A DNA stretch of 64,000 nucleotides from an uncultured Verrucomicrobiae bacterium (GTDB taxonomy: Bacteria > Verrucomicrobiota > Verrucomicrobiia > Chthoniobacterales > UBA10450), in the NCBI GenBank assembly GCA_963772365.1, contig CAVYXA010000001.1:736001-800000 (forward strand). The letters are read 5' to 3'. The position numbers and the translations under genes were made by a program. A model generated the notes under the pieces. It searched no databases and had not been told where the DNA came from. It was given only the letters and a program-made list of their open reading frames with translations. Below, piece after piece: positions 41,028-46,469 of this stretch (positions are counted from its first letter, which is position 1; each line of letters starts with the position of its first letter).

Positions 41028-44000
41028 TTAATATTCGTGCTCCCAGTCATGACCGTCCGTGCAACAGTTCGTCACGTGCGTTGATTCGCGCTGAAGCGAC
41101 GCGCCGATCTTCGGATCGAAGTTCATCAAGAAGAGGTCGGGACTGGAATAATCAATGGCCTTCGACACAGTGCAATACAGTCCGGACTCGCCATCGAACC
41201 GCATCCCATTGAACAAATATGGATTTCCGATGGCGCTGGCAGGCAGCGGATTGCCTGAGCCGTCGAAGAAGTGCGGATCGCCGAAATCTTCGTATTCGTA
41301 CCGTTCAGCCGCGCCCCCAGCAGGGTTGGTCAACGGCCAGATCGCAACATCGGACCCCGCTCCGACATAGGTGAAATTATTCCCTGCGCGACGCATCTCG
41401 ACTGGGGCTAGCGAATATCGAGGATCCAACAATTCAGGCCAGGGGCCGCGTCCATCGTCCATCGTGCGCAAGTTAAAAGCCCAGTCGCTCTCGCGATATT
41501 GAACACAGTAGTCGCGCTGGCAAGAGCATTGGTCATCGCACATTTCGCCACCACGTTCTGTACAGACACCAATCGGGGGGAGCGGCTGGATCGGGAGATG
41601 TGGCAAATCGACCATCGTGCACAATACCCACCAGGGTAGAGACCCGCCACCGCCGTTCCAATCTCCTCCGCGAACCGGTACCGTGCTGTAGCCTGCTGTT
41701 ACCCCGCCGCTGCCGTCGCGCTCCTCCAGAACAGTGCGTCCAGTATAAAAGAAATTCGTGGTGTTCGGTTTCCCGTCGGGATCGAGTGTCTTCGCGATGC
41801 GACGACCATGCGCGTCGTATTGATAATTGGCAATCCGCAGACCGGTATTCACGTCGGTAAAATCGACAAGACGGTTTGCGTAATCGTAGGTGTAGTTCTT
41901 GTTCGCGCCGCCGCCGTTGAGACTAGTGCGGTTGCCATTGGCGTCGTACAAATAGTTGCCGCGGGGCGTGCTGGTATACTGGCTCATCTGCGCATCCGCG
42001 GGCTCGGGCGTCGTGTTATCCAGGAAATAGGGCCCGGGATCGGGTGTTTGAAAACCATTCACGGCAAGCCGATTGCCGTTGCGGTCGTAATTGTAAATCG
42101 TGTCGCGCACAAGTGTCGGGCCGGGCGCGTTCACTTGCGTATGCACATTTCGATTTGCCGGGTCGTAATCATAATGATGCAAAAGTTGCGGCCCGCCCGA
42201 GCGGGTGTCTGCGCGCTCGCTCAGGTTTTGGTTGGCATCGTAAGTAAAAGTGCGTTGATCGAGAACGATGTTGCCGAGTTGAAGCGTAACCGTGCCGGCC
42301 ACCTGTCCCCAGCCAAGGTCGGAGCTTGGCGGCGCGTCGACAAATCCATTGTAGCTGAACAATGTCGATGTTGCATTGCGGTGCGAAACACTCTCAGTCC
42401 GGCGTCCAATGTAATTATACGTCGCCATGGTTCCCAATGTATCGCCATCGCTTGTCGCCGTTAGGCTGACGCTCGTACAAAGATTTGCCACGTCGTGCGC
42501 GTAAGTGAGTGTGCGTCCACTCGGCGATTGCAACGTCAACAAATTGCCGACCGCGTCGTGTGTGTAGCTCGTAACCAGGTTCCCTAAACTTTCGCTGGTG
42601 CGGTGCGCCAGTGAATCGAAGGTGTAGCGCACGACTGCTGCATTGTTGATCGCGCGCTCAGGCCAGCGGTATTCGCCAGGGTAATCGTAAATCTCAAACG
42701 TTGTGGCGTTGGATACTCCCGGGCCGGGAATGATCTGGCGCTGACGAAGCCGATTCAGATTGTCGTAGTTATTGATACAGACAGTTGCGTTCTCATCGTG
42801 GGATTGAACTGCGTTGCCCCAGGCATCATAGCTCCAGGTTTTCGCCGTGGTGTCGGCATTCGTCCGCTGAAGACAGCGGCCCAGCGCATCGTACTGATAC
42901 TGGGTCGAATACGAATTGGGATTGGTCGCGCCGGTCAAACGCGAATTGTCATCCCAAATCCGCCCACTAATGACGTCGATCCCGGCGTCGAATCCTGAAC
43001 CGTTTCCGTTCATGTCGCGTCCGCTTCGGAGCAATCGATTCAGACCGTCATACTCGGATTGAACGAGCTTATTTCGCGGATCGATATATCGCACTCGATT
43101 GCTGCGCGAGTTGTACAAATAGCTTTGGGCATTCCCCACGTTGTCAGTCGAGGTAATTAGCCGATCCAAACCATCATAGACATTCGTCAGAACAAATACT
43201 TGATCCGACGACGCCGAATCTGATTTATCGGTCCGCGTCCGCGTCACCAGATTTCCATTTGAATCGTAGGTGTAATCGACGGAATTGGCTTTTGGATCGG
43301 TGATGCGTGAAAGGCGATTCGCGCCGTCATACGAAAACGATGTCGCGTGTCCGTTGTCATCTGTCACGCTTGTTACATTCAGCGCCGGATCACGTCCGAT
43401 TGAGATCGTGCGCGCGCCATCGTCGATCGTGGCCGTCGTGATCGGATCAAACCAACTCTCGGTCCTCTGGGTCAGAATACCGTTGGTATCGTAAACAAAC
43501 GTCCCGCCGCGTAGTGGGCCGAAGTTTGGATTGCCCTTCGCATCGAGAAAAGTCCCCTGCATCGTGAAATTCGTGACTTGATGGTTTTCATTGTAACCGT
43601 ACTGCGTGTTGGTTCCGACCGGATCGGTTAACATTGTTAGGCGATCAAAGCCGTCATAATCGTAAAGCGTCGTGTGCTGCAGCCCGGCGGGCGCACCAGT
43701 TTCGAGCCTGGCCAGATTACCATTGAGATCGTAGGTGAATTTCGAGCCGGTGGCGATTGGACTACTGGGCGCCCTGATCGCCGTAAACGGAAGATTCCGT
43801 TCATCGAATGCGTACCGCACGCGGGCATCCGGTTGCAAGCCGCCGGCCGCCAGCGGCGAGCGCATTTCGATCAACTCGCGAATCGGATCATAAAAGTATT
43901 GCGCCGTGATCGTGTGCGCATTGTCCAAGTCGCGTGTGATCGAAGTCACATGATCGAGTGAATCAAAACTGAAGCTGGTGACGAAAAACGCCGGCGTCCC

Positions 44001-46469: not shown

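Follow-up and report, generated by a model that had tools for sequence, protein, structure and literature searches.

Short peptide islands at fixed sites of an apparently toxin-less RHS shell protein from an uncultured Verrucomicrobiae bacterium

The window analysed here is a stretch of 64,000 nucleotides from contig CAVYXA010000001.1 of an uncultured Verrucomicrobiae bacterium, and its minus strand carries a gene (41028..46469) for an RHS/YD-repeat shell protein of 1813 amino acids (aa), counted from its ATG, that is predicted to be exported. In the usual view, an RHS protein encloses a toxin, either an enzyme or a pore-former, that is paired with an immunity gene. The family to which this protein belongs points to other contents, namely mosaics of 10-65-residue pieces from the most highly conserved proteins known, which occupy fixed shell sites and the tail in organisms in which genome searches found no donor systems. 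At the level of sequence, the comparisons below establish that the mosaic exists and that its positions are fixed. On balance, we favour the reading that the gene encodes an exported, toxin-less RHS cocoon in which an inherited, slowly turning-over peptide mosaic would replace the toxin, and that foreign segments are not actively captured.

Variable sites and the fragments they hold

The reading frame of the gene is intact, with 1855 codons open on the minus strand from 41028 back to a TTG at 46595; the database entry (P0002, 1813 aa) starts at the ATG at 46469, and the initial annotation used these bounds. Residue numbers given here follow the open reading frame (ORF), with the TTG at 46595 as codon 1, and the features of the gene all lie on the minus strand. 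By aligning the protein with eight homologues of 55-75% identity, the inserts may be delimited. The nine sequences share a framework of 1323 ungapped columns, and in all nine this framework is broken at the same places by unalignable sequence of differing length, namely at four inserts and at a tail after aa 1838. Insert i (aa 90-132, 46200..46328) is a linker preceding the plug domain, and its predicted local distance difference test score (pLDDT) in the AlphaFold2 model is 27-34. Insert ii (aa 559-705, 44481..44921; pLDDT 23-30) is a mid-shell loop of 147 aa, and insert iii (aa 1643-1726, 41418..41669; pLDDT 24-41) is a loop preceding the closing strands. Insert iv (aa 1812-1826, 41118..41162; pLDDT <50 at aa 1813-1819) lies within a degenerate RHS closing motif, where the length of the site ranges from 0 to 64 aa across 63 proteins. 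The fifth site is a tail of 17 aa (41031..41081; pLDDT <50), which stands in the alignment at the position usually taken by the toxin. In the query protein, the five variable sites total about 300 residues. Every segment with a pLDDT below 50 is either the signal peptide or one of these sites, for which AlphaFold2 predicts no notable secondary structure, and the models indicate that the sites are disordered. Four of the five insertion sites listed in the initial annotation coincide with the variable inserts. The fifth, at 42669-42695 (aa ~1301-1309), was rejected: it is conserved in 9/9 sequences, has equal length in the 63-sequence alignment, falls in a high-confidence region of the model, and belongs to the framework.

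Each insert was scanned separately with Pfam and NCBIfam profiles. In insert i, aa 97-125 (46221..46307) match the LruC_dom profile (TIGR04456) at positions 2-30 of 243 with an E value of 5.6e-9; only the first 29 profile positions are involved, and the full 243-position domain is not found. In insert ii, aa 603-621 (44733..44789) match PF05954 (Phage_GPD/VgrG) at positions 116-134 of 305 (E 9.9e-5) and TIGR03361 (E 1.9e-5), and in insert iii almost the same range, positions 116-135 of PF05954, is matched by aa 1693-1712 (41460..41519; E 5.4e-5). For the whole protein, Phage_GPD reaches an E value of 1.6e-7 and 31.3 bits over two stretches, and TIGR03361 gives 34.6 bits where its cut-off is 186. 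A full VgrG, with gp27-like and gp5-like domains, was considered and rejected, since only positions 116-135 of the 305 are matched. Among PDB sequences, 4/4 matches of insert ii are VgrG chains, aligned at residues 139-159 of VgrG1 (4mtk), each of them weak by itself (E 0.17-0.19); insert iii alone gave no match in the PDB. The two VgrG fragments have the same eight residues with four synonymous codon differences, including TCG versus AGC for serine. This retention of the peptide despite differing codons may be read as selection at the peptide level.

Insert ii contains a further recognisable piece, an FG-GAP-like GDxNGDGxD loop (aa ~636-659, 44619..44690), which resembles the repeat units of P0123 (E 2.6e-7) and P0126 (E 7.6e-4), two proteins built of GDWNGDGxD-type repeats. 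These matches come from a search of 1.84 billion representative proteins, in which insert ii had four partial matches at E<=0.001 and no protein covered it as a whole. In addition, aa 576-592 (44820..44870) weakly resemble a motif shared by two secreted proteins of the host genome (G000 C5:244979-247582 and C1:903301-904377; tblastn E 0.066, 31/36 aligned bases identical with a 6-base gap), possibly by chance. No Hcp fragment was detected in the query gene at E<=10 in the scans of the inserts. That short pieces of unrelated families are patched together in frame, as the initial annotation described, is supported by profile matches to LruC and, twice, to VgrG, and by motif matches far above chance across the family. 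The bias towards VgrG and Hcp that it reported holds across the family; in the query gene VgrG occurs twice and Hcp is undetected.

The shell and the missing toxin module

The remainder of the protein is an RHS/YD shell with, according to the models, a cocoon fold. The Pfam profile RHS_repeat (PF05593) matches 11 stretches (E 2.7e-46), the NCBIfam profile YD_repeat_2x (TIGR01643) matches nine, and a DUF6531 domain occupies aa 143-213 (45957..46169; PF20148, E 4.1e-11). PF25023 (TEN_YD-shell) appears in the precomputed list for P0002, yet it is not among the Pfam matches at E<=1 obtained here. AlphaFold2 was run with 63-row alignments on two overlapping parts rather than on one chain; the model of aa 713-1855 has a pLDDT of 85 and a predicted template-modelling score of 0.82, the model of aa 43-1000 has a pLDDT of 75.8, and beta-hairpins make up nearly all of both. 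When the C-terminal model is compared with the PDB by Foldseek, the Rhs cocoons 8qja, 8qjc, 8uxt and 7q97 stand at the top (E 1e-41 to 1e-44), followed by a bacterial teneurin-like protein (9ifo, rank 14, E 1e-35), teneurins and TcB-TcC, and in a whole-protein phmmer search of the PDB only Rhs chains were matched. At the N-terminus, the translation after the ATG shows a basic stretch, a hydrophobic stretch and a cleavage-type site of small residues, and aa 43-75 (46371..46469; pLDDT <50) read as a putative Sec signal peptide. The intact frame with signal peptide and YD repeats that had been proposed for this gene is thus recovered, the signal peptide by inspection.

The module that normally follows the shell is absent. 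Neither profile of the RHS-associated core (TIGR03696, PF03527) matches the protein at E<=1; PF03527 is listed in 10 of 44 scanned relatives (seven at E<=0.001) and is not listed for P0003-P0010. In the alignment of 63 proteins, canonical relatives have a second DPxG-type motif after the closing motif and then 100-300 residues of toxin. In the query, only 17 residues follow the last conserved closing motif, and inspection of the C-terminus revealed no second DPxG-type motif and no toxin domain. The stop codon at 41028 is separated from obg, which lies on the opposite strand and ends at 40952, by only 75 bp, so that there is no space for an adjacent immunity gene. The assignment of the shell as toxin-less, made in the initial annotation, holds. 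Pfam also gave no PAAR match in the protein. The same genome contains a canonical rhs gene of 1743 aa (G000 C4:105326-110554), in which both the standard closing motif and a C-terminal domain are present, and, at G000 C3:397400-406400, a cluster of orphan cassettes for rhs C-termini among which two identical pairs of IS3-type transposase genes are interspersed; the canonical type therefore exists elsewhere in this organism.

Comparison with known systems shows shared as well as differing features. The Rhs effectors of type VI secretion systems (T6SS), such as RhsA (7q97), Tse15 (8uxt/8uy4), Rhs-Tre23 (7pq5) and the Salmonella bongori Rhs (8qjb-d), have the same YD cocoon fold (Foldseek E 1e-40 to 1e-44). 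According to the available part of the Tse15 paper (PMC11461821), known cocoons enclose an unfolded C-terminal domain; the extra sequence of the query is likewise predicted to be unfolded, and its approximately 300 disordered residues are the size of a typical cocoon cargo. Whereas these effectors have a PAAR or VgrG-binding N-terminus, the query has a predicted signal peptide; no T6SS genes were found in the search of its genome, it is without core, second DPxG-type motif, toxin and space for an immunity gene, and its extra sequence lies in internal loops and at the end. In the VgrG-Rhs fusion of Advenella mimigardefordensis (8qja), VgrG sequence and an Rhs cocoon are also found in one polypeptide, but there a whole VgrG precedes the cocoon, whereas in the query 20 of 305 profile positions occur twice, in a mid-shell and a C-terminal loop. 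Bacterial teneurin-like proteins (9ifo; PMC13018210) resemble the query in being exported YD shells with N-terminal accessory domains, but their C-terminal domains are described as enzymes or membrane-active toxins with immunity proteins, and the accessible part of that paper makes no mention of motif mosaics. Lastly, in the portions of two papers available to us, the variable regions of rhs and other polymorphic toxins are renewed by recombination through C-terminal displacement (PMC2935791; PMC3482391). This exchanges whole toxin domains together with immunity genes, unlike the mosaics, which are 10-65-residue non-toxin pieces that also occupy internal loops; peptide mosaics are not mentioned in the available sections of the polymorphic-toxin survey (PMC3482391). 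The initial annotation knew of no RHS class like this one, and searches of the main texts of freely accessible papers found no description of RHS peptide mosaics.

Homologues and the wider family

In the nearest homologues, the same sites hold other fragments. The question raised in the initial annotation, whether homologues carry different motif sets at these sites, can be answered in the affirmative, as Hcp, gp5 and other ranges of VgrG are found there. Partial-domain matches to VgrG, gp5 or Hcp occur in 6 of the 15 nearest homologues. Just past the signal peptide, P0007, P0008 and P0010 have a stretch that we take to be Hcp-like and that no hidden Markov model (HMM) match covers, and P0007, P0008 and P0009 have at site i what is presumably a VgrG OB-type stretch. 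Repeats of the gp5 beta-helix are present in P0007 and P0010 (Gp5_trimer_C, E 7.7e-18 and 5.8e-11). Site iii holds VgrG positions 114-147 in P0008, P0007 and P0015 and positions 39-81 in P0006, while site iv holds Hcp fragments in P0014 (PF05638 positions 18-83 of 129, E 4.7e-8) and P0015 (positions 41-94, E 4.4e-8) and, in P0016, a similar sequence without an HMM match.

Some of these islands persist. The VgrG island at site iii is found in P0001, P0008, P0007 and P0015, with framework identity down to 37%, and the composite module of site ii recurs in P0020, whose identity to the query is 34-37%. Among P0007-P0010, the shared Hcp-like and VgrG-OB islands are 65-91% identical, compared with 58-77% for the framework. 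Homologous inserts with the same islands are present in independent assemblies from NCBI, ENA, JGI and Logan. Judged by these identities, some islands have demonstrably been inherited over long divergence, and the content of the inserts appears to be both, in part inherited and in part turning over.

At greater distance, relatives of 31-47% identity come, where named, from Verrucomicrobia, Planctomycetes, Phycisphaerae and Kiritimatiellae. Their tails are of two kinds: canonical tails with toxins, and tails with an NNPWS motif and glycine-rich linkers in which short modules recur. The modules with HMM support include positions 51-89 of the 90 in HU (E 8.5e-15, in tandem twice in P0094), positions 119-182 of 258 of a Tyr/Ser-Thr kinase (E 4e-12), positions 15-43 and 87-105 of the 106 in EF-Tu domain 3, CSD positions 36-64 of 66 and Phage_base_V positions 48-66 of 75, together with fragments of Hcp and VgrG and one complete gp19 domain. 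Some fragments take the place of the loop in an ordinary YD hairpin. Other repetitive endings were also observed: the tails of P0021, P0103, P0075, P0092 and other RHS proteins repeat short modules up to seven times or more, among them a 15-residue unit containing DHNSSRSN and a GHNGHVTVLKA unit, and the endings GHVTL(L/M)K and NSIxN(I/M)(R/K) recur.

The assembly of the modules can be followed where tails were aligned against the host genome's own EF-Tu. In P0062, EF-Tu 260-292 is joined to 323-348 by a 30-residue deletion between two KKEE/TKEE repeats. In P0089, EF-Tu 364-387 is followed by 320-337 and then by 268-278, which is the reverse block order, and neighbouring blocks have 1-4 residues in common. 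The tail of P0049 closes with the C-terminus of EF-Tu itself, and site iv of P0034 holds EF-Tu 146-155. More generally, duplication and permutation of modules are frequent, modules often meet at overlaps of one to four residues, and junctions of the type seen in P0062 and P0089 are the trace expected from microhomology-mediated deletion and template switching on duplicated inserts.

Possible origin and role of the mosaic

Based on the results presented above, a course of events may be proposed. A Verrucomicrobial clade would have lost the usual C-terminal module, comprising the RHS-associated core, self-cleavage motif, toxin and immunity gene, and five fixed shell positions hold about 300 predicted disordered, fast-changing residues with short islands. 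The islands appear to copy those parts of unrelated families that are conserved best, and in the query these families are LruC, VgrG (two islands) and a calcium-loop repeat. More widely, RHS proteins of the Planctomycetes-Verrucomicrobia-Chlamydiae (PVC) group stock the same loops and tails from what appears to be one shared set of peptide modules, with Hcp, VgrG, gp5, gp19 tail tube, EF-Tu, HU, cold-shock and RRM proteins and protein kinases as candidate donors. The modules may have arisen by illegitimate, microhomology-mediated recombination, and they would have spread by exchange among RHS genes with slow turnover, no active capture device being needed in the host genome. The disordered mosaic may stand in for the toxin, whether its pieces are tethered inside as content or displayed as shell loops, and it might act by sequence mimicry of conserved protein cores; these last two steps are the least secure. 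The donors share extreme conservation and no common activity, which points to mimicry at the peptide level, by interference, seeding or decoy. The nearest analogue of such mimicry is the synthetic Pept-in, a peptide with a short segment of its target protein that, according to the available part of the paper (PMC8447941), knocks the target down by sequence-specific co-aggregation. The likeness is a functional analogy only: both repeat short protein segments, the natural tails with glycine-rich linkers, and aggregation of the natural peptides, their entry into a target cell and any action of theirs are putative.

Several points weigh against this proposal. The placement, processing and peptide activity of the inserts are assumptions only. 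P0003, at 72-77% identity the closest homologue, lacks all three islands with HMM support (LruC and VgrG twice), and at its site iii the alignable flanks are kept and the VgrG stretch is gone; the islands can thus be dispensed with, and they turn over. In the query, the start of insert ii, which can be aligned with the Hcp-like piece of P0007, is degenerate. An orthologue at E<=1e-50 was found in 0/60 relatives of the same genus, family and order, so vertical inheritance would require many losses. The assignments to RRM_1 and eCIS_core are weak, with E values near 1e-3, and 7 of the 22 proteins in the Pfam scan of homologues were chosen via precomputed Pfam lists. With fifteen short motif patterns, 64 matches fell in 34 of 120 homologues, and 200 shuffles averaged 1.6 matches and never exceeded 6; this control is not independent because the patterns were written after instances had been seen; 20 of the 34 positive proteins were previously uninspected.

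A serious rival, rather unlikely in our judgement, is that the inserts are neutral debris. Loops tolerant of junk would hold remnants of earlier fusions or captures, such as those from a VgrG-Rhs ancestor, that are decaying and functionless in themselves, and the protein would serve simply as a YD shell for structure or adhesion, comparable to a teneurin-like protein whose toxin was lost. Decay would be consistent with the predicted disorder of the inserts, with the loss of all three islands in P0003 and with degenerate versions such as the start of insert ii, yet the islands common to homologues keep an identity as high as that of the shell, and the two VgrG islands retain the same peptide where their synonymous codons differ. 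VgrG-Rhs fusions are indeed known as solved structures (8qja), but the islands lie mid-shell and near the C-terminus rather than at the position of a fused VgrG, and families with no link to T6SS (LruC, EF-Tu, HU, kinase) are used alike. Insert ii as a whole lacks a relative among the 1.84 billion proteins, as a relic might; on the other side, conserved stretches that are apart in the donor lie directly against each other, the less conserved parts in between having been lost. If the pieces are inactive, they still form a natural record of microhomology-driven recombination building, permuting and trimming protein-coding mosaics.

A stronger version of the mimicry idea, which we regard as unlikely, holds that PVC RHS cocoons contain strings of short peptide mimics instead of an enzyme and serve in sequence-targeted interference, the query gene being a reduced member whose payload is tethered in loops. 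Mimics of the most conserved cores, both of essential proteins (EF-Tu, HU, cold-shock/RRM, kinase) and of weapon proteins (Hcp, VgrG, tail tube), would act as dominant-negative molecules or as co-aggregation seeds, as natural equivalents of the Pept-ins, and the cocoon would shield a sticky, unfolded payload. Should the pieces indeed be active as peptides, sequence mimicry would be a novel addition to the modes of bacterial antagonism or defence.

A further possibility, raised in the initial annotation as one of two readings, is a dedicated mechanism that captures short foreign segments in frame at set sites and makes them hypervariable, and this now seems improbable. It would account for fixed sites whose content differs per homologue, for the junction overlaps of one to four residues with duplication and permutation of blocks, and for the differences at every insert between the query and its closest homologue P0003, whereas the same islands stand at the same sites in proteins that are 37-77% identical. 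The host genome assembly (G000; 3.35 Mb, 6 contigs, metagenome-type) is 90% complete, so that absence from it, as from other incomplete genomes, means 'not found' and is no proof. Within it, RVT_1 reverse transcriptase, T6SS_HCP and Phage_sheath_1 gave no match, the only Phage_GPD and LruC_dom matches are those inside the query gene, and no VgrG or Hcp gene was found; no T6SS gene was found in the window either, in line with the initial annotation. Since the VgrG, Hcp and LruC families are unmatched outside the query gene, no resident donor was found. A search for donors within the genome had also been suggested, and here both protein- and DNA-level searches gave only chance-level matches: relaxed tblastn and blastn-short searches with four insert segments reached best E values of 0.02-0.07, including a GDxGPxxYIQAVN-type match, and by blastn-short no insert has a copy elsewhere in the genome beyond 15-17-base chance matches. 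A target of a diversity-generating retroelement was rejected as a candidate, there being no RVT_1 match and no template copy of any insert. Of the 13 ORFs of at least 150 aa that were scanned within ~7 kb of the gene, four have no Pfam match and the others are housekeeping genes. Active capture is not supported because RVT_1 and donors are missing from these searches, the recognised neighbours are housekeeping genes and the islands persist.

Equally improbable is a role as decoy or display, in which peptides of Hcp, VgrG, gp5 and the tail tube, exposed on the outer face of the shell, would bind, misdirect or sense the T6SS, extracellular contractile injection systems (eCIS) or phage tails of other organisms. 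A family-wide excess of donors from contractile systems (VgrG, Hcp, gp5, Phage_base_V, gp19, eCIS_core) and the predicted export signal fit this idea, and in the two carrier genomes checked there is no VgrG or Hcp match beyond short fragments in RHS genes; in that of P0007, Phage_GPD occurs only as the short VgrG fragment of its RHS gene, and Hcp has no match. It leaves the pieces of EF-Tu, HU, cold-shock, RRM, kinase and LruC proteins unexplained, and the outside position of the inserts is an assumption. A solitary full-length T4 gp19-like tail-tube gene was observed in the host genome (L014:18418-18939; G000 C3:126468-126896), matching PF06841 at positions 1-134 with an E value of 7.7e-44; its same-strand neighbours (145, 716, 138 and 352 aa) have no Pfam match. 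A contractile-system link was considered and set aside, as there is no sheath match and this gene has no recognisable baseplate or sheath neighbours.

That the fragments are an artefact, through chance or compositional motif matches or chimeric assembly, is barely credible: every island is short, the single PDB alignments have E values of 0.17-0.19 and the genome is a metagenome-type assembly of 6 contigs, but separate pieces reach HMM E values of 5.6e-9, 9.9e-5 and 5.4e-5, the same islands occur in independent NCBI, ENA, JGI and Logan assemblies, the shuffle control stands at 64 versus a mean of 1.6, and the frame is intact over 5.4 kb. Such genes do present an annotation hazard, in that they give misleading short matches to the VgrG, Hcp, EF-Tu, HU and kinase families.

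The neighbours matched by Pfam are nrdR, obg, phosphomannose isomerase (PMI), an alanine-racemase-like gene and a response-regulator kinase. A divergent PMI-RHS pair is also present in L003, a locus in an uncultured Verrucomicrobiae metagenome-assembled genome, where the RHS protein is 58% and PMI 62% identical. In a genome of the same genus (G001), the order nrdR-obg-PMI is found and the RHS gene is absent; a gap of ~180 bp separates obg and PMI (L011; G001 C4:150000-168000) where the window has the 5.4-kb RHS gene. The contig scan for further homologue loci yielded one, L003, and the metagenome scan one distant locus, L006, with 34% identity. An old resident locus that has often been lost fits these data best.

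Three other observations were made alongside. On the plus strand of the window, an ORF for a 692-aa dynamin-family GTPase (52138-54216) overlaps the end of a polysaccharide deacetylase ORF. On the minus strand of L003, positions 18280-20979 encode an 899-aa exported protein with ~15 repeats, each ending in an SDCWAVG-type motif; it has short, spurious-looking DUF6087 and DUF2510 matches, and it is probably a beta-propeller, unrelated to the RHS protein. In the host genome, a proteasomal-type AAA ATPase gene adjoins a Pup-ligase gene (L015:75-3850; G000 C3:128074-131849; PF03136, E 8e-167).

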